A DNA stretch of 26,407 bases from a virus (lineage: Duplodnaviria; Caudoviricetes): positions 1-26,407 of IMG/VR virus record IMGVR_UViG_3300042997_000157; one strand, 5' to 3'. Under the pieces are notes generated by a model that had not been told where the DNA came from, ran no database searches, and worked only from the letters and a program-made list of their open reading frames with translations. The position numbers were made by a program, and so were the translations under genes. Shown here piece by piece: positions 7,907 through 26,407 of the stretch. The stretch's first letter is position 1; the number at the start of each line of letters is the position of its first letter.

Positions 7907-8875
7907 TCACTTTTTATATTTGTGGGCGTACAAATTAGCTGAACAGTGGCATGATTCATACGGACAGACTACATAGTCATTGATAAACTCAACATTATCT
8001 ACATCTAAATCTGCTACAATTGGTGATAATTTACAGCCATTGGTTTGACCGCGTCTACATAAATTAACATCTACTGTCAATGCATCATTGTTTATATTAC
8101 AATGCCATCCTAAAAAATGATTTTGATCTTTTTTAATCAAATCCTGTGATCCGGTAAAATCTATAGTGCTTCCGTCATCATATGATATTCTAATTCTATT
8201 CTCATGCTGATTTATTAGTGGAATATCAGAATCTACTTTGTTTGATTTTTTTCCGTAGGATATTGTTGACACATATTCTATTTGTTCAGGTGTTAGCTTA
8301 GAAAATAGATTGTACGTTGTAATATTCATGTACTTTATTTCAATTTTGCTAGCGGTGTTTTCTTTTAAAAAATTTACTGAATTTACTACTCTATCCATTG
8401 TTTCATGGGTATGTGTTATGAAACAATTTGTTTTTGTACTTGTATTGTGAAATGTGTTTAACACATTTGCAATATGTTCATAATCATCTGTTTTTTCTGT
8501 ATGGTATGATATGTATAACGCATCTATTGCATTTGCTTGTTTACATTCTTCCCACCAACGCAGTGTTCTACTTCCATTTGAAATCAATCCTATATAGGCT
8601 CCTTTGGATTTCAAGTACGTTACTAATTCAATAAAATTTGGGTATAAGGTTGGTTCGCCACCTGTTATAAAAAACCAAACGTTTGGTCCTGAAGCCTTTA
8701 ACAATTTATCAGCGTATAATTTGTATGTACTTAATGGTTTCCACTTACGATCACCTATTTTATTTTCATTTCCGCAATAGCTACAATCATAATTACATAC
8801 ATTGTGCAATGACCATTCTATAACTTTATGAGTTGTTTTTACTATTTTTTCTGAAATGATAGGTATTTTTGTCAT
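7907..8875 (-). CDS. Radical SAM protein with a Cys-rich C-terminal domain
   Basis: CNYDCSYC (CxxxCxxC), TGGEP, ISNGS, C-terminal WHC...C...C...CPYESCHC. Start at 8875 gives an ATGA overlap with the upstream gene. Confidence 0.9.
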   Translation of the reverse strand: MTKIPIISEKIVKTTHKVIEWSLHNVCNYDCSYCGNENKIGDRKWKPLSTYKLYADKLLKASGPNVWFFITGGEPTLYPNFIELVTYLKSKGAYIGLISNGSRTLRWWEECKQANAIDALYISYHTEKTDDYEHIANVLNTFHNTSTKTNCFITHTHETMDRVVNSVNFLKENTASKIEIKYMNITTYNLFSKLTPEQIEYVSTISYGKKSNKVDSDIPLINQHENRIRISYDDGSTIDFTGSQDLIKKDQNHFLGWHCNINNDALTVDVNLCRRGQTNGCKLSPIVADLDVDNVEFINDYVVCPYESCHCSANLYAHKYKK

Positions 8876-9978
8876 TTCTTTTTCCCACACACTTCAACAC
8901 AGAATAAAAGTTTACCGTCACTTGCTGATTTTTTATTCCAGCTGTCAATAAAAAAGCTTGTAAAATACTTGCTTTGTAATATGTCTATCATTGAATGTTT
9001 TTTTATATTAAATTTATCTAGACCCACTTCATTAATCAAATGTTTAAATTGATGGCGAGAAAATGAATTTACTCTTTCCACTAATGCACCACCTAAATAA
9101 CAACATGGTAACAAATGTCCTGAGGCAGTAACAAAAATAGCTTGGTCTTCGGGGTATTGAAGTGACTCACAATTGATAGGTGTAACAATAGACCAATTAT
9201 TAACTTCATCGGACAATTTTGGAATATTTGCTATAGGTTTTATTGATATCTTTTTGCCAGATGGTACGTTGACTTTTTCAGATGAATAGTCAACTGGATA
9301 TATATTATATTCATGTTGTCCAGTCTTATCAAATACTTCTATGAACGGGTTACTTTCATAGAAGCCTAAGGGTTTTTTAACTGAGAAACCAAATCCTAAT
9401 TTTTTAGCAAGTAGTTTTGCTTCTTCAACTTGATGTTTATTGTGGTCAAAAATTAACCATTCCCATATAGCATATCCGCCGGCTTCACTGTACGCTGTCA
9501 TGTTAGATATGACTTTATCCCACATCACGCCTCTACGATATATGTGGTTAGTGTCTTCTAAACCGTCTACACTAAATACCACACCTGCTTTACTCAATGG
9601 ATAATCCGGTATCTCTTTATTTGTATTGTAGAAAAACGTGCCTAAGTCATGCCAAAAATCTGTGCTACGCATACCTGCATTAGTTCTTACGTGCTGTATC
9701 AAATCGTGATTAGACATTGTTTGAAAATATTGTAATATTTCAGGCAATTCTTTAACAAAACCCGCATCACCTAAATTACCACAATAGTTTATTCGTCTTA
9801 AATTATGTAATATTTCTACCGGGAACATTTGTTTTATATCAGTCAAAGAAAGGGTATCGTTGTTTAATCCCTCTATGACTTCTCCGCCGCTATAATTTCT
9901 ACTACAAACCGGGCAACTAGCATTACATTTGGTAGTTAATTCAATTTGTAATTTAGTAATTTTTTCTATATTATACAT
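8872..9978 (-). CDS. Radical SAM protein with a SPASM/twitch-like C-terminus
   Basis: CNASCPVC, CGNLGD, RTNAG, FSVDGLEDTNHIYRR, C...G-x-x-LPCC...C-x-x-x-C. Confidence 0.9.
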   Translation of the reverse strand: MYNIEKITKLQIELTTKCNASCPVCSRNYSGGEVIEGLNNDTLSLTDIKQMFPVEILHNLRRINYCGNLGDAGFVKELPEILQYFQTMSNHDLIQHVRTNAGMRSTDFWHDLGTFFYNTNKEIPDYPLSKAGVVFSVDGLEDTNHIYRRGVMWDKVISNMTAYSEAGGYAIWEWLIFDHNKHQVEEAKLLAKKLGFGFSVKKPLGFYESNPFIEVFDKTGQHEYNIYPVDYSSEKVNVPSGKKISIKPIANIPKLSDEVNNWSIVTPINCESLQYPEDQAIFVTASGHLLPCCYLGGALVERVNSFSRHQFKHLINEVGLDKFNIKKHSMIDILQSKYFTSFFIDSWNKKSASDGKLLFCVEVCGKKK

Positions 9979-10005
9979 GTTGTTTTCTATCTCAGTCGGA
10001 TACCT

Positions 10006-11082
10006 TCATGTAATTGCTTCCCCGCATGTCTCTGCACAAAATAGTAATCTACCATCTTTGATTGATTTATTTTCCCACCCCTTGATGAAAAAATTAGTAA
10101 ATTCACTATCTTGTAATATGTCTATCATATTTCTTTTTCTCAAATCTATTTTATCTAGTCCCAACTCATTTATTTTTTCATAAAATTGTTGGTTAGCATA
10201 TGTTAACGTGTTATTGATTAAGGGACCACTTAAGTAACAACAAGGAATTAAATGACCCGAACTAGTTACAAATATTTGTTGACTATTATTATTCTTAAGT
10301 GACATACATTTTACATTGCGTTTTTTTGAGAGTGATTCGTGTTCATCTGTCAAAGTATGATGTTTGATTGGTATATATTTGTTAGGTATTATATTTTTAG
10401 TACCTTCATAATTAGCAGGAAATATATTATAATCAAAAGTCAAGTCTTTATTGTAAACTTCTACGTATGACTTTTTATCTTTAAACCCCATTGGCTCTTT
10501 CACCATAAATATGAAGCCTAAATCTTTTGCTATTTTGCGGGCTTCGGCAACTTGATGCTGATTATGCTCAAACAATAAATATTCCCATCTACCATATGCT
10601 TTAGTTTTTGCATATGCTTCCATGTTAGTATATACCTTTTCCCATTTTACATTTCTACGATAGATATGATTCGTATCTTCTAATCCATCTACACTCCAAA
10701 TTACACCATTATTAAATTTGGGTTGTTTTTCTGCAAAAAATAATCCAAGTTCTTTCCAAAAGTCTGTATCACGCATTCCACCATTGGTTCTTATCTGCTG
10801 GTATAAATACCTATCAAAATTGTCTCTAAAATATCTTAAGATAGGTATTAAATCAGTGGCGTAACCCGGATCACCAAAGTTTCCACAGTGATTAACAAAA
10901 TTTAAATTTTTTAAAATTTCTTTGGGAAATATTTTTATGATATCATCTAAGAATAATTCATTGTGTACATATTCATCGATTACAGGGCCGCCTTGAATAT
11001 TTCGATTACACAATGGGCAACTTGAATTACATCTAGTAGTTAGTTCAATTTGAAGTTTTTTGATAGATGATATATTATACAT
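10006..11082 (-). CDS. Radical SAM protein with a SPASM/twitch-like C-terminus (paralog of 8872..9978)
   Basis: CNSSCPLC, CGNFGD, RTNGG, WSVDGLEDTNHIYRR, IPCC, FCAETCG. Confidence 0.9.
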   Translation of the reverse strand: MYNISSIKKLQIELTTRCNSSCPLCNRNIQGGPVIDEYVHNELFLDDIIKIFPKEILKNLNFVNHCGNFGDPGYATDLIPILRYFRDNFDRYLYQQIRTNGGMRDTDFWKELGLFFAEKQPKFNNGVIWSVDGLEDTNHIYRRNVKWEKVYTNMEAYAKTKAYGRWEYLLFEHNQHQVAEARKIAKDLGFIFMVKEPMGFKDKKSYVEVYNKDLTFDYNIFPANYEGTKNIIPNKYIPIKHHTLTDEHESLSKKRNVKCMSLKNNNSQQIFVTSSGHLIPCCYLSGPLINNTLTYANQQFYEKINELGLDKIDLRKRNMIDILQDSEFTNFFIKGWENKSIKDGRLLFCAETCGEAIT

Positions 11083-11085
11083 CGT

Positions 11086-12159
11086 CTATTTATAGAAATC
11101 TATAACCTTATCTGCAATATATTCTATTTCATTATCTAACAACTCTGGATATATTGGTAAGCTTATTACACCTCTAGAAAGCATTACGCTTGTACCCATC
11201 AGATCAGGTCTACTGATATTTCTATCCTGTGCTGTAGGCAAATCACCTAACACATACTCGTAATGTATCTTACTATCAATACCATCAGTTAACAAATGAG
11301 TATGTAGTGAATTTCTATCAGGTAGATACATTACAAATTTTTGATGTGCATGGGGTATATTAGTATCAGATAAACAACTCAATGGTAGTTCTCTAAAAGC
11401 ATCACACCAATATTTTGATATCTCACTTCTACGCTTTTGCCAATCATTAATATACTTTGTTCTAACAAGAATCTGAGCACAATCTTGTTCACTCATCTTA
11501 CTGTTAGTTCCTACATCATGGAATGCAGGCTTGTTATTGTCTCTGTAGGTAGCGGCAAACAGGTATAGATGTTCATCGTTTGTGACAATCGCACCACCGT
11601 TTCCTGAGCTTGGTAAGTTCTTTGTAGGGTCAAAACTGATTGCCATACCACTACCCACTTGACCCTCAGCAACTAACCAATGCTGGGCACCATCTACAAT
11701 AATACCGTGACTGTTTTCTATTCTTGCTTGTTCCCATGGTTTCAATCCAGCAAAACCAACTAAACAATTATATACGCCTGAGGTCTGCCCGGTGAAGCTT
11801 AGAATACCATATTTGTCTGTATCACCCAACTCAATGTCCCAACCAGCAGTTAAGAATGCATTAAGTGTAGCAGGGTATGTTAGGTTGGGTAGTAGAACTT
11901 TAGGATTACCTTGCATTGATTGATTATGTTTAATCTTCTTGTATCGTGCGATAATCTCAAGTGCTTGTGTACCACTATGTACAGTTATAGCATATTTTGT
12001 TTTGGTGCGGTGTCTAAGCCATTCTTCAAATGACCGAGTATAATGCCCACCAACTAACTGTCCGTCTTTAAGAGCACGGTGAGTTGCATCAAGCAACTCT
12101 TCACCGATGTTCTTATACTGTCTTGCTAGACCAAAATGGGGAATTACTAAGCCACTCAT
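11086..12159 (-). CDS. DegT/DnrJ/EryC1/StrS-family PLP-dependent nucleotide-sugar aminotransferase
   Basis: SGTQAL, DGAQH, SFDPTKNL (PLP lysine), GNGGA, GTNSKMSE, ISLPIYPEL. Likely start is MSGLVIP at 12159. Confidence 0.9.
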   Translation of the reverse strand: MSGLVIPHFGLARQYKNIGEELLDATHRALKDGQLVGGHYTRSFEEWLRHRTKTKYAITVHSGTQALEIIARYKKIKHNQSMQGNPKVLLPNLTYPATLNAFLTAGWDIELGDTDKYGILSFTGQTSGVYNCLVGFAGLKPWEQARIENSHGIIVDGAQHWLVAEGQVGSGMAISFDPTKNLPSSGNGGAIVTNDEHLYLFAATYRDNNKPAFHDVGTNSKMSEQDCAQILVRTKYINDWQKRRSEISKYWCDAFRELPLSCLSDTNIPHAHQKFVMYLPDRNSLHTHLLTDGIDSKIHYEYVLGDLPTAQDRNISRPDLMGTSVMLSRGVISLPIYPELLDNEIEYIADKVIDFYK

Positions 12160-13081
12160 AATATCTTTCAAAGCCTTCTTCTACATCTACTTTAGGGTCA
12201 TATCCAAAGTCTCTACGAGCGGCATCAATGTTCAATGCACCACGACTTGGGAAGTCTGCGTCTTTGTCTTTAACTACCAATGTACCGCCACCAGCTAACT
12301 TTAATGCTAGTTGTGCGGCTTCTAACAATGTACGACTATGACTTTTAGTAATATTATATGTTTTATTCTCTGTGTTATCACTTAATGCGGCAGCAACAAT
12401 ACCATCTGCGGCGTCATCAACATAAGTAAAGTCTAATGTTTCATTAGCACCATTAACATTCAATGTGCCTCCACGCATTGCTGTTAACATAAACTTGGCA
12501 ATCACACGATCCTCAACATCTAACGGGCCATAGACAGCACTTGGACGAATGATAGTATGGCTGAAACAATTACGACGGCTATAGTCTTTAACAAGATGTT
12601 CACCTGACAGTTTCATAATGCCGTACTGTCCCTGTGGCTTACAGTTATAATCTTCTGTTACATCATCAGTAAAGTCCCCGTATACCATTGAACTACTGAT
12701 ATAAACAAACTTCTTTATTTTATGTTTCTTGCTAACTTCACACAAATTCAATAGACCTTCCATCATTGTTTTTGCTCCCATAGTTGGATTAGCATTAACA
12801 ACTTTTTGTCTTGGAAAACTAGCCATATGAATTACAATATCAAATTTGTATCTACCAAAGAGCCAGTCAATACTTTCACTAGAAATATCAATAGCATGGA
12901 TACTACCGGGTTGAATTTTCTTCAACCGTTCTGTCATTAGATAGTCAATCTCATCTTGTGGGATGATACCGTAGTTAGTTCGTATATCGGTAATAGCAAC
13001 ACGGTGCCCCATACGTTGTAATCTATCTACTACGTTATGTCCAATAAGTCCTAATCCGCCTGTAACTAATATATTACTCAT
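12113..13081 (-). CDS. NAD-dependent nucleotide-sugar epimerase/dehydratase (extended SDR)
   Basis: TGGLGLIG Rossmann motif, SSSMVYG, catalytic YGIMK (YxxxK), RPSAVYGP, DFTYVDD. Confidence 0.92.
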   Translation of the reverse strand: MSNILVTGGLGLIGHNVVDRLQRMGHRVAITDIRTNYGIIPQDEIDYLMTERLKKIQPGSIHAIDISSESIDWLFGRYKFDIVIHMASFPRQKVVNANPTMGAKTMMEGLLNLCEVSKKHKIKKFVYISSSMVYGDFTDDVTEDYNCKPQGQYGIMKLSGEHLVKDYSRRNCFSHTIIRPSAVYGPLDVEDRVIAKFMLTAMRGGTLNVNGANETLDFTYVDDAADGIVAAALSDNTENKTYNITKSHSRTLLEAAQLALKLAGGGTLVVKDKDADFPSRGALNIDAARRDFGYDPKVDVEEGFERYYEWLSNSPFWSSKTV

Positions 13082-18160: not shown

Positions 18161-19435
18161 TCACTTTTCATCATAAAGAGCATAAGTACCGAATGGGGGA
18201 TTCGGATTAGGGTGACCGTGAATAACCCAAGTTGTATCGCAATAGTCTGGGTCACCCCAACTACCACAGGGGTATCCATCAGTGAAACAAATCAATCGCT
18301 TAGGTACATTACCTTCTTTCTTCAAATATTCAAAGATAGCATCAAAGTCAGTACCACCGCCACCCATTGGGTTATATTCTTCAATAGAGTCCATATTGTC
18401 AGAATGAAAGTCTTGTGGGTTGTACACCTCAGTATCAAAACAGAATACATGGACCTTATAACCATCGAAAGCATCCATCATGCCACCAATCTCACCTAAG
18501 AATTGTTGTGCTTGTTTGTCACTGATAGAACCACTCATGTCGATAGCAACAACAACGTCAATCTCTTCTCCCGGTGTCATGCCGGGCATGATTGCGTCCA
18601 TGTGCCAGCCTCTGCGTGAGGGACGCATCCAACTATAATCAGTACGAATTGCACTTGTCAAGTTAGTTTGAATCAGTTCACGCCAGGGCATAACTGGGTT
18701 AGTAGCTTGACGAATCAATCGTTCAACACCTAAGGGGAGTTGACCTGCTTCAGCACTACTTGCCGCATTGATAATTGCTTGCTTAACTTCTTGGCGAATA
18801 CGTTCTTTTTCTTCATCAGAAAGTTTGGGACGACCTTTACCATTACCTTCAGTATCACCGTCACCCTCTCCGTCACCTTCACCATCCATGTGGTCGTCAA
18901 GCAATTGGTCAATCAAATCATCAACACTGATCTTTTGAACATTCTTCATCAAGTCATCATAGATTTCTTCACTTGCTTTACCATCATACTTTTGTTCGTA
19001 CAAGCAAGGTACTGTAGTAATGAATTGACCAACTTTGTGTCGCTTTAAGTCAGCATTAACCGCATAGTCATTTGCAATGTTAAAGATTTGAGAATCACGT
19101 GTACCACGACGGCCCATGTGATCGTAGACAACGTGCAATACTTCGTGCGCTACCAAAAACTCAACTTCTTTAGGCTTCAACATCATAATGAAGCGGCTGT
19201 TGTAGTAGAACTTCTGACCATCAGTTGCCGCAGTACTACACCATTCATCGGCATTAGTCAATGTCAACCGTGTCGCAAGATTACCAAAGAATGAATGACG
19301 CAACAACAAACCAATACGTGCAGTGACCAGTCGTTCCCGTGCATCATGATCGATTTTTTTATCAGTAGGTCCTACAAGATTCTCAAATTTTTTGCTACGA
19401 TTACGCTTTTTTGTCGGGTTAATTACTTCACTCAT
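18161..19435 (-). CDS. DUF2201-type protein: N-terminal putative metallopeptidase plus C-terminal VWA domain
   Basis: TAATDG, HEVLH (HExxH), NIANDYAVN, acidic Gly linker, MIDAS DMSGS, GGGTDF, FTDGY. Confidence 0.88.
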   Translation of the reverse strand: MSEVINPTKKRNRSKKFENLVGPTDKKIDHDARERLVTARIGLLLRHSFFGNLATRLTLTNADEWCSTAATDGQKFYYNSRFIMMLKPKEVEFLVAHEVLHVVYDHMGRRGTRDSQIFNIANDYAVNADLKRHKVGQFITTVPCLYEQKYDGKASEEIYDDLMKNVQKISVDDLIDQLLDDHMDGEGDGEGDGDTEGNGKGRPKLSDEEKERIRQEVKQAIINAASSAEAGQLPLGVERLIRQATNPVMPWRELIQTNLTSAIRTDYSWMRPSRRGWHMDAIMPGMTPGEEIDVVVAIDMSGSISDKQAQQFLGEIGGMMDAFDGYKVHVFCFDTEVYNPQDFHSDNMDSIEEYNPMGGGGTDFDAIFEYLKKEGNVPKRLICFTDGYPCGSWGDPDYCDTTWVIHGHPNPNPPFGTYALYDEK

Positions 19436-19460
19436 ATATGTTCCTTTAGTAGATATATCT

Positions 19461-19489
19461 ATTATACATCAAACTTGATTTAATGTCAA
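19461..19489 (-). promoter_or_regulatory. Consensus sigma70 early promoter
   Basis: TTGACA-ttaaatcaagtttgatg (17 bp)-TATAAT. Confidence 0.9.
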
Positions 19490-19507
19490 AAGGGGCGAAC
19501 CCCTTTT
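19488..19507. terminator. Intrinsic terminator (UUCG loop on the minus strand)
   Basis: AAAAGGGG-TTCG-CCCCTTTT. Its U tract overlaps the next -35 element. Confidence 0.8.
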
Positions 19508-19509
19508 GA

Positions 19510-20613
19510 TTAATTGCCTGCTTCAACAATGTACTTGCCGTATTTCTTGTGAAACTCATCAAAGTTTTTCAACTGACTTGGCTCAATCGGCAACTTGTAA
19601 GTCTTAAGAGCAATCTTTGCACCCATCACAACCAACTCAGTTTCAAAGTTTGCCATGATGTAATTGAAAAAGTTGTCAGCCATTTCGTGGAACTTCTTAC
19701 TGTCAACTTTCTTTGTTTCCAAAGAATCACGCAATTCATAGCACATTGAAATTGTCAATGAGTACATTGCCGAGATTTCCTTGACTGCAAGGTCCTTAAC
19801 TTTACCTGACAAGATATCAGAGGGTTCGGGCATACGACCTGCAACTTTACGGTGTGCGGCAAACTTAACTGCAAGACCTTCACCGACTGCACCTGCAACC
19901 AAATTGAACAATGTATCGGTATCAACACCTTCTTCATCATTCAACAAGTCGCTTACGAAACACCAGCTACGAGGTGTAGCAAATGCACGTGATGCAGATT
20001 TACTATCAAAGTCGTACAAGTCTTGTTTAGCAAACGACAAGTAACCCACAACGTCTTTGTGAATGCCTTTGTTCACAGCCCAGTTCTGCCATGATGTAAA
20101 GTCGGGACGCATTTCCAAGTGCAAGAAACGATTAGCGAGGGGCATCGGCATGCGATATGTAACACCTTTGTCAGAGTCACGATTACCTGCCGCAACAATC
20201 ACAACATTGTCAGGCAATACATACTTACCAACTCTACGATTTAGAATCAACTGATAGCCTGCTGCCTGTACTGCAGGTGACGCACTGTTCATTTCATCAA
20301 GAAACAAAACAACGATAGGGTATTGTGATGCAAGTTCTTCATCAGGCAAGTCTACAGGTGATGCCCAATCCATCTTGTTGATATCTTTGTTGAAGAAAGG
20401 GATGCCTCGAATATCAGTAGGCTCCATCTGTGCCATACGCAGGTCAATCATGTGACCCCCGAGTTCCTCAGTTACCTCAGCAACCACTTCAGATTTACCG
20501 ATGCCGGGAGGACCCCACAAGAACAAGGGTCGTTTTGCTTTAAATGCGGCCAACATTGCTTTACGTGCTTGGACCGATGTGATTGTCAGATTGTCAGATA
20601 CTTGCGATGCCAT
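19510..20613 (-). CDS. MoxR-like AAA+ ATPase
   Basis: Walker A GPPGIGKS, D-x-RGIP, Walker B LFLDEMN, sensor AAGN, Arg finger LANRF, TPRSW. Adjacent to a VWA gene. Confidence 0.9.
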   Translation of the reverse strand: MASQVSDNLTITSVQARKAMLAAFKAKRPLFLWGPPGIGKSEVVAEVTEELGGHMIDLRMAQMEPTDIRGIPFFNKDINKMDWASPVDLPDEELASQYPIVVLFLDEMNSASPAVQAAGYQLILNRRVGKYVLPDNVVIVAAGNRDSDKGVTYRMPMPLANRFLHLEMRPDFTSWQNWAVNKGIHKDVVGYLSFAKQDLYDFDSKSASRAFATPRSWCFVSDLLNDEEGVDTDTLFNLVAGAVGEGLAVKFAAHRKVAGRMPEPSDILSGKVKDLAVKEISAMYSLTISMCYELRDSLETKKVDSKKFHEMADNFFNYIMANFETELVVMGAKIALKTYKLPIEPSQLKNFDEFHKKYGKYIVEAGN

Positions 20614-21424: not shown

Positions 21425-22309
21425 TTAGAAGCGGTGGGTTACACCAACTCCAACTTGTTTAATATCACTTGCTGTGCCTACTGCGTCAACATTACGATAT
21501 GTTGCACCAACAATAGTACGCTTGCTAAAATTATAATCAGCACCTAATGCATAAGCTTTAACATTCGTATTTGTTTTACCATAACTAGCTTTTGTAGTTA
21601 CTGCACCAAATGCTTGGCTTGCACCAATCAAATCACCTGTAGTTGCTACTGCACCTTCATTATTGCTATGTGTGTAAAATACTTGTGTGCCACCTAACTT
21701 TGCGCTAGCACCATACACAGTACTCTTTTCAGCACCTTGTGTATATTGGGCAACTACAGCATTAACACCTAGTAGTTTTGCGCTTGCGCTATAACTAGTT
21801 GCTTCTGTGCCTGCACCTGTTTGTGTACGGTCATAAGTTGCTGTAACACCTTTGATTGGTGTCAATGCAAAGAATGTACCATTGCTCAAACGTAGACCAC
21901 GCAAGTTATGAACATCACCTGCAACAGAACCATACAATGTACCAAATGCATCATTGTTAGTAATTGCTAAGAAGTGACTATGTAGATTGCGACCTAGGTC
22001 AACACTGCCTAAACTGTTTGCTAAGCCAATTGTAGATTGACGGTTGCCCAATTTAGTATCAGCACCACCTGTTGGATCATTAGCTGCCAAGCTAGTGTCT
22101 AATACTACACGTGCCTTCAAACCACCACCAATGTTTTCTGTAGCAGAAAATGTGATGTTGCTTGTTGGATCAGTAGCAAGACTTGTTGCGCTTACAGCAC
22201 CAACTTTAGTATTGTCAACAAATGTGCTGATTTTACCAGAGACTGATACTTGTGCAGTTGCAACTAAAGTTGTTGCGGCTAATAATGTCGCTAATGCGAT
22301 TTTCTTCAT
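21425..22309 (-). CDS. Gram-negative general porin, betaproteobacterial type
   Basis: Sec signal MKKIALATLLAATTLVATA-Q, first strand VSVSG, E-x-IGGGLKA, NRQSTIGL-x3-LG-x-V-x-LGR, ADYNFSKRT, C-terminal GVTHRF with terminal Phe. Confidence 0.92.
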   Translation of the reverse strand: MKKIALATLLAATTLVATAQVSVSGKISTFVDNTKVGAVSATSLATDPTSNITFSATENIGGGLKARVVLDTSLAANDPTGGADTKLGNRQSTIGLANSLGSVDLGRNLHSHFLAITNNDAFGTLYGSVAGDVHNLRGLRLSNGTFFALTPIKGVTATYDRTQTGAGTEATSYSASAKLLGVNAVVAQYTQGAEKSTVYGASAKLGGTQVFYTHSNNEGAVATTGDLIGASQAFGAVTTKASYGKTNTNVKAYALGADYNFSKRTIVGATYRNVDAVGTASDIKQVGVGVTHRF

Positions 22310-22457: not shown

Positions 22458-23360
22458 TTACGCTACGAACGGAGTGTATTCAATACCAGTTGTTGCTAAT
22501 CCAACTAAACCAATAGTTGTTTCAAATGCGGCTAACTCACTTGCGGCTACTAGAACATCAGCCTGACTTAGATTACTATTAGTCATCCAAGTTGTGTATT
22601 CTGTAACTTGCGCCAATGTAGCATCAGTACCAAATACGTTTTTGTAAACGTGCTTGATAAATGTTTCATTGCTAACACCACCGGCGTCAGTTTTGTAAGT
22701 ATCAGTAGCAAGCAAGGCTGTTGCTAATTCTTTGTTAGTCCAGCCTGCATCAGCAAGATGTATACCAATACCTTTGTATGCATTAGTTACATCTGTTGTA
22801 CCAAGTGCGGCTGCTAGTAATGCATATACATCACCTGCACGACCTGCGGCATCAAATGCAATACCTTTGTTGTCAAATACAACACGCTCGTGGTCTGCTA
22901 ATGTAAATGTAACATTAGTTGCGACTGTGCTTGCGGCTGTAATTTTGTCTACTGTCTTAGTAATTGTGAAGTCTGTGCTTGCGCCATTTAGTGTGTATGT
23001 GTCAATGCCGGTAGTACCGGTTACATCAACAGCAACATCAACAGTGCCATCACCAACACGACCTGTACCTACAGCACCAAACGTAGCAATTTTACCTAGT
23101 GTACCAACTGTTGCAACAGTTAGTATTAAGTTGTTTGTAACGTTCACACCGCCAAGTGCAGAACCGAGAATAGTGATTGTATCACCGGCAACATAGCCAG
23201 AACCAGCACTTGCGGCTAGACTGTCTAAACTTGCTGTGTAAACACCGTTAGTTTTTACTACGTCAAAAACTGCATCAATTCCTGCACCACCTGTCAAACC
23301 TGTAACGTTTTGATATGTAGCATTAATTGGCTTGTCTTTAATTGTAATTGTTGTTGTCAT
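22458..23360 (-). CDS. T/G/A-rich surface protein with a C-terminal DUF4214 (S-layer-associated)-like domain
   Basis: GIDTY, ERVVFD-x3-IAFD-x2-G-x-AG-x-VY-x-L-x2-AA, SNETFIKHVYKNVFG, C-terminal LVGLATTGIEY. No Sec signal. Confidence 0.7.
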   Translation of the reverse strand: MTTTITIKDKPINATYQNVTGLTGGAGIDAVFDVVKTNGVYTASLDSLAASAGSGYVAGDTITILGSALGGVNVTNNLILTVATVGTLGKIATFGAVGTGRVGDGTVDVAVDVTGTTGIDTYTLNGASTDFTITKTVDKITAASTVATNVTFTLADHERVVFDNKGIAFDAAGRAGDVYALLAAALGTTDVTNAYKGIGIHLADAGWTNKELATALLATDTYKTDAGGVSNETFIKHVYKNVFGTDATLAQVTEYTTWMTNSNLSQADVLVAASELAAFETTIGLVGLATTGIEYTPFVA

Positions 23361-23475: not shown

Positions 23476-24192
23476 TTAATTCCAGTATTTTGATGAATCC
23501 AAACTGTCCCAGTACTGTTTATTGTTGCGGTTGATGAAATTTTTGATTAGATATGCGGCCATTCCAAAGTATCCCATCTTTTTGAACCTACGGGAATCTT
23601 GACCGAAATAGTGATTGACGATTTTAAACTTTTTAGGACTGTACATTCTGGATAGAAAGTAGTCCTCTGATGTGACAGTTTTTTCAGGGAAGCCACCTAG
23701 TTCTTCAAACTTTTCCCTTCGAGTTAGCATAAATGCCCCGATTGCAAAAGGTGAGAAGTATTTTAATACGTGATTTATAACATTGAAAATAGTGAATCCT
23801 ATTATTGCTCGTAAATCGTTGTCATAAGATTTAATGTTCAATCCAATAAGATCCAAGTCATCAGATTCTATTATATCAACTGAATCACTGATTGCAGTGT
23901 CCTTAAAGAAACGCACATCAGCGTCAATGAACAATACGTATGGTGTTGTAACTAACCGTGCTCCGTTATTCTTAGCAATAGATACAGGGCCGCCATCAAT
24001 GATTTCAACATTCAATGAACCAATGTTATCTTTTATGACCTGTCTAGTATTATCAGTAGAACAGTCAGCAATGATGATTCTAGTATTACCTATGTTTTGT
24101 GAGTGTAGTGAATCTAATAAATGATGTATGTAATTTTCTTCATTTTTACAAGGGACTACGATAGTTATTTTATCACTTATTGTTTTTTGCAT
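23476..24192 (-). CDS. Family 2 glycosyltransferase (GT-A fold)
   Basis: IVVPCKNEE, DCSTDNT, AKNNGA, FIDAD (DxD), GGF...EDY, SRRF. Confidence 0.9.
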   Translation of the reverse strand: MQKTISDKITIVVPCKNEENYIHHLLDSLHSQNIGNTRIIIADCSTDNTRQVIKDNIGSLNVEIIDGGPVSIAKNNGARLVTTPYVLFIDADVRFFKDTAISDSVDIIESDDLDLIGLNIKSYDNDLRAIIGFTIFNVINHVLKYFSPFAIGAFMLTRREKFEELGGFPEKTVTSEDYFLSRMYSPKKFKIVNHYFGQDSRRFKKMGYFGMAAYLIKNFINRNNKQYWDSLDSSKYWN

Positions 24193-24347
24193 TCTGCTAC
24201 CACCTTAAAATTGTCAAACTTCAGCTTGTATTTAATTGTACTTAATGCCAATTGGCAAGTCTGTTGATCTTGGAACATCAGTTCCACTCGTCCCGGCACG
24301 TCTTTTGAGTCGTTTATATGAACTGCTAATATTATCAGTATCCACAT
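24177..24347 (-). CDS. 56-aa protein with hydrophobic N-terminus and two Cys (not in the ORF track), overlapping the 3' end of the plcP-type gene
   Basis: AAGGAG-aaggacg-ATG. Manual translation MWILIILAVHINDSKDVPGRVELMFQDQQTCQLALSTIKYKLKFDNFKVVAECKKQ*. Stop overlaps the GT2 start region. Confidence 0.7.
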   Translation of the reverse strand: MWILIILAVHINDSKDVPGRVELMFQDQQTCQLALSTIKYKLKFDNFKVVAECKKQ

Positions 24348-25098
24348 CGTCCTTCTCCTTAGTCCAAGTAACTATTTCCCAACGACCATCGTAGTGTTCT
24401 ACTAGTGCCGTACAGCTTTCAACCCAGTCACCGTCATTCATATAGACTACACCATCAATAGTTTTTATTTCTGCGTGATGTATATGGCCGCAGATTACAC
24501 CATCGAATCCACGCTTCTTACAGTAACCAGCTAGGTTCTTTTCAAACTGGAACATAAAGTCTATGGCTTTTTTTACTTTGTATTTAAGGTATTTACTAAG
24601 ACTAAAGTACCCAAAACCAAAACGATGACGTATCCAATTGAATTTGCTATTAAGCGATAAAATGAAATCATATGCTTTGTCTCCTAAAAAACTTATCCAC
24701 GGGGCTAATCTTGTTATACCATCAAACAAGTCACCGTGTGTAACCAAATAATGTTTACCGTCAGCACCTATGTGTTCTATTTGATTGTGTATCTCTACTA
24801 GACCAAAACTAAAACCATAAGGTATCATTGGTCTTAAGAATTCATCGTGGTTACCTGCTATATAAACAACTCTAGTACCACGCTTTGCGTGTCCTAACAC
24901 TCTACGAACAACATTGGTATGACTTTGTTTCCATCGCCACTTGTTTTGCTGTATACGCCAAGCATCAATAATATCACCTACTAGATATAGTGTATCACAA
25001 CTGTTGTGCTTTAAGAAATTATTGAGTTTATCAGCCTGGCTATCTTTGGTACCAAGATGAACATCGCTGACAAAGATTGAACGATATGTTTTATTCAT
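24232..25098 (-). CDS. plcP: PlcP-type metallophosphoesterase (intracellular phospholipase C; family often annotated LpxH2/UDP-2,3-diacylglucosamine hydrolase)
   Basis: SDVHLG, GDIIDAW, W-x-W-x-QSH-x-x-VV, GNHDEFLR, HGD-x-FD, SLSKYLK-x-KVK-x-A, CGHIH, YMNDGDWVESCTALVEH-x-DG. No signal peptide. Directly downstream of pstS. Confidence 0.8.
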   Translation of the reverse strand: MNKTYRSIFVSDVHLGTKDSQADKLNNFLKHNSCDTLYLVGDIIDAWRIQQNKWRWKQSHTNVVRRVLGHAKRGTRVVYIAGNHDEFLRPMIPYGFSFGLVEIHNQIEHIGADGKHYLVTHGDLFDGITRLAPWISFLGDKAYDFILSLNSKFNWIRHRFGFGYFSLSKYLKYKVKKAIDFMFQFEKNLAGYCKKRGFDGVICGHIHHAEIKTIDGVVYMNDGDWVESCTALVEHYDGRWEIVTWTKEKDDVDTDNISSSYKRLKRRAGTSGTDVPRSTDLPIGIKYN

Positions 25099-25157
25099 AA
25101 TGGTAAATTAAAAGTGCTGGTTACGAGTTCCAGCGCCACTCTATCGTTGTGGTCGAT

Positions 25158-26165
25158 TTATTTAATCTGTGTCCAAACACGTTCACGGATCTGTTTTGTT
25201 AGACTGTCCGGTAATGACACATAGTCTAAGTCTGCGGCGTCTTTCTTGCCATTCTTAAATGCCCAGTCAAAGAACTTTAATACTTCATCACTATTGGCTT
25301 TGCTCTTTGGCTCTTTGTACATAATGATGAAACTGGCAGAACTGACAGGCCATGCATTGGGGTTCTTTTGATCCACAATGCTGAGTCCCATACCAGGAAT
25401 ACTGAACCAATCAGCACCATCTGCCGCGGCAGCAAATGTTAAATCATCTGGACTAACAAACTTACCTGACTTGTTTTGTAATTGTAGGAATGTCATGTTG
25501 TTCTTTTTAACATAAGCATACTCTACATATCCAATTGAACCTTTAATACGATTCACGTTTGCCGCAACACCTTCGTTACCCTTGCCACCTACTGAACTAG
25601 CAGCCGGCCATTTGATTGTAGCACCACGACCTGCACGTTGTAGCCACTCTGGACTTACAGTAGCAAGATAGTCTGTCCAGTTAAATGTTGTACCACTACC
25701 ATCAGCACGATGTACAACGGTGATTTCTGCGTCAGGTAGTTTCTTACCTGGATTCAATGCTACCAACTTAGGATCATTCCATCTAGCAATAGTACCCATG
25801 AATACTTCTGCCATAACTGGCCCTGTGATGCGTAGTTCACCTGGTTTGAAACCATCTAAGTTAATAACAGGAACTGTTCCGCCAATGATAGCAGGGAATT
25901 GAACTTGACCCTGTTTGTCTAGGTTGTCGCCTGATACCGGGGCATCTGTTGCACCAAAATCAACTGTCTTTGCGTTGATTTGACGAATGCCACCTGATGA
26001 GCCGATTGACTGATAGTTCATACCAGTACCAGTGGCCTTTTTATATCCTTCTGCCCATTTGGCATAGATTGGGAATGGGAATGTAGCGCCTGCCCCTGTT
26101 ATGTCTGCGCCAACTGCGACTGTTGATATTAACAATGCACCTAATAATGCTGTTAGTTTTTTCAT
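25158..26165 (-). CDS. pstS: Phosphate ABC transporter periplasmic binding protein
   Basis: Start moved to ATG 26165 (AAGGAG RBS). Sec signal, TGAGATFP, YQSIGSSGG, DFGATD, HRADGSGTT, GKGNEGV, IGYVEYAY. Confidence 0.97.
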   Translation of the reverse strand: MKKLTALLGALLISTVAVGADITGAGATFPFPIYAKWAEGYKKATGTGMNYQSIGSSGGIRQINAKTVDFGATDAPVSGDNLDKQGQVQFPAIIGGTVPVINLDGFKPGELRITGPVMAEVFMGTIARWNDPKLVALNPGKKLPDAEITVVHRADGSGTTFNWTDYLATVSPEWLQRAGRGATIKWPAASSVGGKGNEGVAANVNRIKGSIGYVEYAYVKKNNMTFLQLQNKSGKFVSPDDLTFAAAADGADWFSIPGMGLSIVDQKNPNAWPVSSASFIIMYKEPKSKANSDEVLKFFDWAFKNGKKDAADLDYVSLPDSLTKQIRERVWTQIK

Positions 26166-26216
26166 GTAATAGTCTCCTTGTGTGTTAGTATTACACAAGT
26201 ATTTACTTTAGGAATT

Positions 26217-26234
26217 GTGACAGTACGATGACAA
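26217..26234 (-). promoter_or_regulatory. Pho box (PhoB site) upstream of pstS
   Basis: TTGTCAT-CGTA-CTGTCAC: two 7-bp direct repeats spaced by 4 bp, matching CTGTCAT-N4-CTGTCA(C/T). Confidence 0.85.
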
Positions 26235-26246
26235 TTGCGTGAAATC

Positions 26247-26273
26247 AAAAAGGAAGGGGCACCTAAGTGCCCC
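26247..26273 (-). terminator. Intrinsic terminator of the tmRNA gene
   Basis: GGGGCAC-TTAG-GTGCCCC-TTCCTTTTT. Confidence 0.8.
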
Positions 26274-26407
26274 ATCTGATTTTCTGTTACGAGGTATGTC
26301 TTACCCTAAGCTGCCTTTATCAGGCTGCTAATGCGAACTGTGAGTCGTTTGCGGTTACTTTGTTTTGCTTCTTCGACCGAGTAGAGCGTCTTTCTGTACT
26401 ATGGGTA
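26274..26407 (-). ncRNA. ssrA: tmRNA, mRNA-like (tag-coding) portion, 5' part outside the window; probably permuted two-piece type
   Basis: AAAGTAACC-GCA resume context, frame 26352-26323 encodes ANDSQFALAA then TGA TAA, stop codons lie in a hairpin loop (GCCT-GATAA-AGGC), no start codon or RBS. Confidence 0.88.

Follow-up and report, generated by a model that had tools for sequence, protein, structure and literature searches.

The window analysed here is a 26,407-nt stretch of DNA from a virus record (IMGVR_UViG_3300042997_000157; completeness estimate, 6%), and on its minus strand, where every window feature located below lies, it carries four co-directional open reading frames (ORFs) with predicted roles in phosphate uptake and membrane lipid remodelling. 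A Pho-box-type direct repeat is followed by pstS (26165–25158), encoding a periplasmic phosphate-binding protein, plcP (25098–24232), encoding a PlcP-type metallophosphoesterase, an ORF for a conserved phage protein of 56 amino acids (aa; 24347–24177) with two invariant cysteines, and a gene for a family 2 glycosyltransferase (GT2; 24192–23476; PF00535) of a PlcP-linked subfamily. An earlier sequence-only reading had proposed a phage cassette made up of a Pho box, co-directional pstS, a phosphoesterase with a GNHD motif, the 56-aa ORF and the GT2, and each of these was located in the window. Taken together, the cassette places a pathway known from bacteria in a viral setting that is new for it, and adds a new subfamily of transferase and an RNA motif that is unclassified.

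By its sequence the phosphoesterase is a PlcP orthologue, with 53.5% identity to the PlcP of Pseudomonas aeruginosa and 44.2% to that of Sinorhizobium meliloti, in keeping with the 46–51% that characterised PlcPs share (PMC8528852, PMC9239053), compared with 22.5% over 120 aa to Escherichia coli LpxH. The references were copies from the same species chosen by gene order, the P. aeruginosa copy being followed by a family 4 glycosyltransferase (GT4), with E. coli lpxH standing for LpxH; the assignment is supported by the identity of the two PlcP references to each other (46.6%), which matches the 46% given for PA3219 and S. meliloti PlcP (PMC8528852). The di-metal motifs DxH, GD, GNH, HGD and GHxH are all present, as in both PlcP references, and D12, H14, D42, N83, H84, H121, H205 and H207 are invariant across 46 homologues (46 of 50 alignment rows were kept and four dropped, one with a stop). 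Alignment confirmed GNHD in the phage enzyme where E. coli LpxH has GNRD, together with GDW against GAW, and the protein fails the LpxH cut-offs (NF003743, 44.4 versus 134 bits; TIGR01854, 32.1 versus 190.35), of which both PlcP references likewise fall short.

Quick IQ-TREE trees place the phage enzyme among the PlcPs, inside a phage clade with support of 98–99, so that the proposed comparison with PlcP and LpxH groups it with PlcP; the LpxH branch in these trees carries 6–10 changes per column and the deeper PlcP forks are weakly supported. The predicted structure has an LpxH-like fold, and the top Foldseek matches are LpxH (template modelling (TM) score ~0.5; 16–21% identity), which is the nearest solved fold by default because no PlcP-named structure surfaced in sequence or fold searches of the Protein Data Bank (PDB). 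The gene is under strong purifying selection. An identity as LpxH was rejected on scores far below the cut-offs, the GNHD and GDW motifs and the low identity over 120 aa; the choice of PlcP over LpxH in the earlier reading is thereby borne out, and the window enzyme in all likelihood has PlcP activity.

The conserved unit was defined from the 80 best plcP loci among the matching viral stretches, whose number is estimated at ~1,100 when one query is used and at ~2,600 when the search starts from a wider alignment. The pstS gene lies within 6 kb of plcP in only 10 of the 80 loci (six upstream, four downstream), which rules out a fixed four-gene operon as the conserved unit, while the 56-aa ORF is present in 68. 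The unit that recurs is Pho box–plcP–(56-aa ORF)–glycosyltransferase; the part of the proposed cassette from plcP to the transferase thus stands, and pstS is a loose passenger. The search for the same synteny in viral databases showed the plcP–transferase pairing to recur across these 80 and a further 79 loci.

The slot behind plcP is filled by one of two types of transferase. Directly behind plcP in the 80 loci were 57 GT2 and 21 GT4 genes, with one locus cut and one holding neither, and the 79 new loci recovered with a query from outside the clade had 39 Agt, 30 GT2, 8 without a transferase nearby and 2 cut. Both transferases never occurred together (0 of 159 loci). Conversely, among 80 GT2 loci plcP was directly upstream in 76, with three cut and one elsewhere. 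The sister-phage GT4 shares 39% identity with Agt1 of P. aeruginosa, an enzyme that makes monoglucosyldiacylglycerol (MGDG; PMC8528852). On a tree of 117 phage PlcPs, from which 42 of the 159 loci were left out as lacking a transferase, short or duplicate, the transferase label changes 27 times, at least four of these changes being forced by strong branches, and a single GT2 clade is rejected by the approximately unbiased test (p-AU, 4.5e-5). GT2 and Agt-like GT4 therefore swap repeatedly in one slot among sister phages. Given this mutually exclusive, repeated exchange and the linkage to PlcP described below, the GT2 is likely a functional, non-orthologous stand-in for Agt. The earlier suggestion of a GT2 instead of the usual GT4 Agt holds for the window; for the phage clade it does not, GT4 being about as frequent (39 versus 30 of 79). 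A second short ORF lying in opposite phase over agt (cluster c12) was taken as a shadow frame.

The GT2 has conserved DAD (90–92) and ED (176–177) motifs and is under strong purifying selection, and its structural model has a GT-A-type fold (predicted local distance difference test (pLDDT), 85), in which helix 127–143, amphipathic and hydrophobic, would suit an enzyme of the membrane surface. It has no BLAST match to Agt1 and is not of the GT4/GT-B type by which Agt is recognised; its PF13506 score is 24.6 bits. Full-length relatives at 35–47% identity were found among 50%-identity representatives, and an alignment of 20 of them, scanned on 2 of 64 parts of the metagenome collection, gave 80 loci. 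A PlcP-type gene was present within the 2.5-kb flank, in either order, at 36 of the 42 loci whose score against the window GT2 was 100 bits or more (31 of these 36 GT2s at 29–46% identity), compared with 2 of 38 weaker, generic GT2s. GNHD is kept in all 29 extracted PlcPs, of which one is the window's own and 28 are partners. Distances among the PlcPs are correlated with those among the GT2s across 27 pairs (rho, 0.67; 0 of 2,000 permutations); kin have a common history, so the correlation does not prove co-evolution. The GT2-linked PlcPs do not form one clade (p-AU, 3e-51; 0.013 with Agt-linked phage copies added). Because of the slot exchange and the PlcP linkage, diacylglycerol is the probable acceptor of the GT2. 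Low-GC metagenome contigs (loci L487–L531), viral-looking by their neighbours, pair the GT2 subfamily with divergent PlcPs, often with the GT2 gene first; 21 of these PlcPs group with a Bacteroidota PlcP (support, 90).

The final 116 nt of plcP are shared with the 56-aa ORF, and the plcP tail encoded there has pLDDT <50. Read in the plcP frame, this stretch shows no purifying selection; read in the frame of the 56-aa ORF, it does. The folded core of PlcP spans ~aa 1–250, and the full 288-aa length was rejected as functional, residues 250–288 being disordered and unselected; the tail is a by-product of the gene overlap. Selection (ratio of nonsynonymous to synonymous rates, dN/dS, ~0.1–0.2 in four pairs) marks the 56-aa ORF as a real gene, and all 43 loci found with it hold plcP and a transferase. 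The window protein had no match in Pfam, 50 members gave chance-level matches only, and the protein belongs to an Atlas cluster of 314 hypothetical proteins. Because it is absent from 12 of the 80 loci, it is likely accessory.

PstS (335 aa) starts with ATG behind AAGGAG, has a signal-peptide-like N-terminus and passes the NCBIfam cut-offs (NF008171, 397.8 versus 339 bits; TIGR00975, 371 versus 205). The phosphate-binding motifs T, GSxGG, D and RxxxSGT, as listed in PMC10987575, are present in its translation, and its best matches in a plasmid collection are Burkholderiales PstS at ~55%.

Upstream of pstS, the Pho-box-type repeats (26217..26245) have an 11-bp period, with two strong heptads (26234–26217) and a weaker third heptad 11 bp upstream of them (26245–26239). 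The strong pair is the sole site on either strand of the window with at most two mismatches to the consensus CTGTCAT-N4-CTGTCAT (taken from PMC8528852), and its two mismatches uphold the description as a near-consensus Pho box. It is also the window's only 14/14 match to a relaxed pattern that was drawn up after the data were seen. With this post hoc pattern, a score of at least 13/14 was reached ahead of 35 of the 61 distinct plcP starts and 7 of the 8 pstS starts, compared with 2 of 641 for the other ORFs of these loci, and at a cut-off of 12 a box precedes 61 of 90 unit-leading plcP genes, 1 of 25 operon-internal copies and 4 of 10 copies behind pstS. Lacking a box of its own, the window plcP would depend on read-through from pstS. 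Host plcP operons have the same repeat type, and many phage boxes have TGTAA in place of TGTCA.

A TAAATA element (26200..26205), 11 nt past the box, is a candidate -10 or phage late-promoter element. Its spacing is conserved, with a box-to-TAAAT gap of 11 nt in 38 and of 21–22 nt, one helical turn apart, in 26 of the 66 boxed loci (64 of 66). TAAATA may resemble T4 late promoters. It also occurs within 70 nt upstream of unboxed window genes, so that the cassette may be read from a late promoter of the phage that PhoB controls. A sigma-70 promoter scan of the window was at chance level (18 versus 17.1). From these sequence patterns it is very likely that the cassette is under Pho-regulon control. 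In the cultured marine Pelagibacter phage Mosig (L082:4903–6738), pstS is divergent from a 49% PlcP homologue, and in the 150-bp gap between the two genes are TTAAC repeats, of which two are spaced by 11 bp.

Between pstS and plcP lies a conserved two-hairpin RNA motif with a possible pseudoknot (25116–25157), followed by a short T-run. Among 17 aligned copies, 92% of cells are paired, and 7 of 12 pairs have two-sided changes, a level of covariation that none of 500 shuffles reached; Rfam gave chance matches only. An independent pattern scan found a cassette gene within 2 kb of the motif in 52 of 80 loci (of 118, context was read for these 80), with 23 copies just after pstS, 13 just after a transferase and 10 just before plcP (two of them also after pstS). 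The other 28 loci have no cassette gene, and several cassette-free copies precede small heat-shock-like ORFs (by eye), downstream of regA-like genes. Copies were seen in loci L005, L013, L018, L080, L218–L228 and L369–L448. This unclassified motif between pstS and plcP is new here, and it could be a stabiliser of the upstream mRNA, a read-through attenuator or a ligand sensor. Because the two-hairpin element and the T-run separate pstS from plcP, the four genes may not share one uniform transcript.

Genes elsewhere in the window point to its source. It encodes a terminase and gp32-like genes, which together with its status as a virus record bear out the phage origin, and the terminase shares ~50% identity with its counterparts in Sinorhizobium phage Phosso and in the jumbo phages PA5oct and Paride. 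Relatives occur on contigs of up to 525 kb, and by sequence it is a fragment of a jumbo phage of the PA5oct/Paride/Phosso terminase group. The host is probably betaproteobacterial, based on the best matches of PstS, a porin and a tmRNA of beta type. The 3' part of this tmRNA (26251–26407; RF01850, E 4e-8; tag ANDSQFALAA) is cut by the window end, and a terminator follows it just ahead of the Pho box; ARAGORN and Rfam at the gathering threshold gave no tRNA-type genes or RNA families in the window. Full permuted tmRNAs were seen near the cassette in loci L013, L016 and L022. Directly downstream of the cassette are genes for a Gram-negative porin (PF13609) and a 300-aa DUF4214 protein (21425–22309 and 22458–23360), and porins appear near the cassette again in L014, L022, L026 and L050.

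Phage-type plcP cassettes also occur inside GTDB metagenome-assembled genomes (MAGs) named Haliscomenobacter, Polynucleobacter, Fischerella and others (L084–L088), which are probably mis-binned phage contigs. Recent uptake of the plcP–GT2 pair from the likely host order was not supported: of 301 genomes of that order one had the GT2, as did one of 251 Bacteroidota genomes, both times on contigs with the phage-type pair. In 5 of 401 Pseudomonadota genomes there are ~30% GT2 relatives, with no plcP in the fetched flank.

Among other window genes, 7907–13081 holds three radical-SAM-like genes, a DegT aminotransferase and an NAD-dependent epimerase, adjoining thymidylate synthase; this possible sugar or modification pathway could also provide the GT2 donor. 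A MoxR-like AAA ATPase is paired with a vWA/metallopeptidase (DUF2201) at 18161–20613. Within 6 kb of phage plcP, 29 of 80 loci encode a BPL_N-like protein of 215 aa and 16 of 80 a fatty-acid desaturase (PF00487; loci with such neighbours include L020, L025, L027–L030, L054 and L055).

In bacteria, PlcP gives diacylglycerol and Agt makes MGDG or glucuronic acid diacylglycerol (GADG), from operons with Pho boxes (PMC4796936, PMC8528852, PMC9239053, PMC13691135). It appears reasonably likely that under phosphate starvation the phage imports phosphate and turns host phospholipids into phosphorus-free glycolipids. Phosphorylated PhoB of the host would bind the repeat and switch on a promoter ending in TAAATA; phage PstS would supply the host PstCAB transporter; PlcP would split phospholipids into diacylglycerol and phosphorylated head groups, the latter being recycled by host enzymes; and the GT2 would add a UDP-sugar to diacylglycerol, keeping the bilayer intact. 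Phosphorus spared in this way would feed phage nucleic-acid synthesis. The RNA motif would hold plcP mRNA below the level of pstS mRNA, and the role of the 56-aa protein would be accessory and dispensable.

Several observations weigh against this account. Eight of the 79 new loci have no transferase nearby, 29 of 90 unit-leading plcP genes lack the box pattern, and two cultured phages hold plcP-like genes, labelled LpxH-like, with no annotated transferase directly beside them. For the GT2, a PDB sequence search for a characterised enzyme gave generic GT2s covering the nucleotide-binding half only, the best NCBIfam match is well under its cut-off (TIGR04283, 59.7 versus 182 bits), and clearly bacterial relatives (~30%) adjoin VTT-LssY_C membrane genes and not plcP. 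On the host side, probable hosts often already own the pathway, which is present in 92 of 201 genomes from a sample of the order to which a Polynucleobacter MAG belongs, with agt adjoining plcP in 24 of 29; the phage copy would then strengthen or take over a function of the host. The phosphorus gain is also limited. With an assumed 0.4–2.2 × 10^7 lipids per cell, a fully stripped membrane corresponds to the DNA phosphorus of ~5–37 virions with a 300–440 kb genome, which would be useful for a small-burst jumbo phage, though not large.

That modest yield leaves room for the same chemistry to serve mainly an altered host envelope (superinfection exclusion, evasion of membrane-acting defences, lysis timing or survival of the starved virocell), with phosphate stress as the cue. 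The lipid swap in bacteria changes membrane proteins and antibiotic sensitivity (PMC9804370, PMC8528852) and the porin and DUF4214 protein are encoded directly downstream; the Pho-type box, however, is common to plcP and pstS in the same phages, and pstS and plcP are linked separately in Mosig. A primary role in the envelope is considered unlikely, and phosphorus supply is the likely main benefit.

It is also improbable that PlcP is a true phospholipase C while the GT2 uses another acceptor, such as polyprenyl phosphate, the head group, lipopolysaccharide, a surface protein or another lipid. The missing characterised close homologue of the GT2, the DedA/VTT-LssY_C genes or PAP2 gene adjoining its ~30% bacterial relatives and the carotenoid glycosyltransferase names among its Atlas neighbours would all fit such an acceptor, but the transferase trades places with Agt, repeatedly and exclusively, in one slot and is linked to PlcPs of separate branches. 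A third alternative, in which a phage-encoded regulator binds the repeat, TAAATA is an ordinary late promoter and the cassette is a timed late function in place of a response to host PhoB, would account for TAAATA ahead of unboxed window genes and for the many TGTAA boxes; it is very unlikely given a window box two mismatches from the published consensus, the same repeat type in host plcP operons and the reported control of phage genes by host PhoBR in a cyanophage (PMC10976474). Least probable is that the enzyme acts as a hydrolase of lipid A biosynthesis of the LpxH type, a reading suggested by the label of the homologues (UDP-2,3-diacylglucosamine diphosphatase) and by the LpxH fold matches, since the score is 44 bits against a cut-off of 134, the motifs are GNHD/GDW against GNRD/GAW, the PlcP references from P. 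aeruginosa and S. meliloti bear the same label, and LpxH is the nearest fold only for want of a PlcP-named PDB structure.

Lipid remodelling for phosphorus, the favoured interpretation, has its closest counterpart in the PhoB-regulated PlcP–Agt systems of bacteria (P. aeruginosa PA3219–PA3218/PA0842; S. meliloti PlcP; Phaeobacter MED193; SAR11 HTCC7211; Burkholderia cenocepacia BCAL2364–2366; Methylosinus trichosporium OB3b). Shared with these are a PlcP with intact di-metal motifs, an adjacent glycosyltransferase and an upstream Pho box, as well as, in sister phages, the Agt homologue. The cassette differs in being phage-encoded, in the replacement of GT4 by a GT2 of an uncharacterised subfamily, in the inserted 56-aa gene, in the pstS linkage of some phages, in the spacing of the box to TAAATA and in having no dagK or btaAB in the window. 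Bacterial plcP beside non-Agt transferases has been described (types 3 and 5, PMC4796936; type Ia methanotrophs, PMC9239053). As in cyanophages, a phage pstS stands behind a Pho-type box, an arrangement tied to phosphate-limited replication (PMC10976474), but here in a jumbo phage with a probable betaproteobacterial host and with a regulon that takes in lipid enzymes. LpxH shares the calcineurin-like fold with a helical insertion (TM ~0.5) and differs in its 16–22% identity, Arg for His in GN(H/R)D, family cut-offs far above the scores of the phage enzyme and a different gene neighbourhood. Processive GT2/GT21 diacylglycerol glycosyltransferases (Pgt type) and TIGR04283-like GT2s share a GT-A fold and amphipathic helices with the phage GT2, which gives weak profile scores only.

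No report of a phage-encoded plcP was found in full-text literature searches, which do not cover subscription papers. The terms 'plc', 'phospholip' and 'lipid' do not occur in the main text of a 2024 survey of phage phosphorus acquisition (PMC10987575), nor does PMC9004378, which discusses Mosig, mention its pstS and plcP genes.

Phage phosphorus genes have so far been those of import, release or sensing, and this cassette would draw on a new pool, the host membrane, and alter the lipid composition of infected cells. Though common, it is hidden beneath the LpxH label, and it offers a testable new family of glycolipid synthases. With it, plcP counts and glycolipid ratios taken as signs of bacterial phosphorus stress may include a viral share. 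A tentative and rather doubtful extension is that freshwater jumbo phages run a phosphate-starvation regulon of their own, with host PhoB acting on late-type promoters, tuning by a structured RNA and a largely viral GT2 as a new class of diacylglycerol glycosyltransferase, maybe making an undescribed glycolipid. If true, infected cells would swap membrane phospholipid for phage DNA and the glycolipid pool of phosphorus-poor lakes would be partly a viral product.

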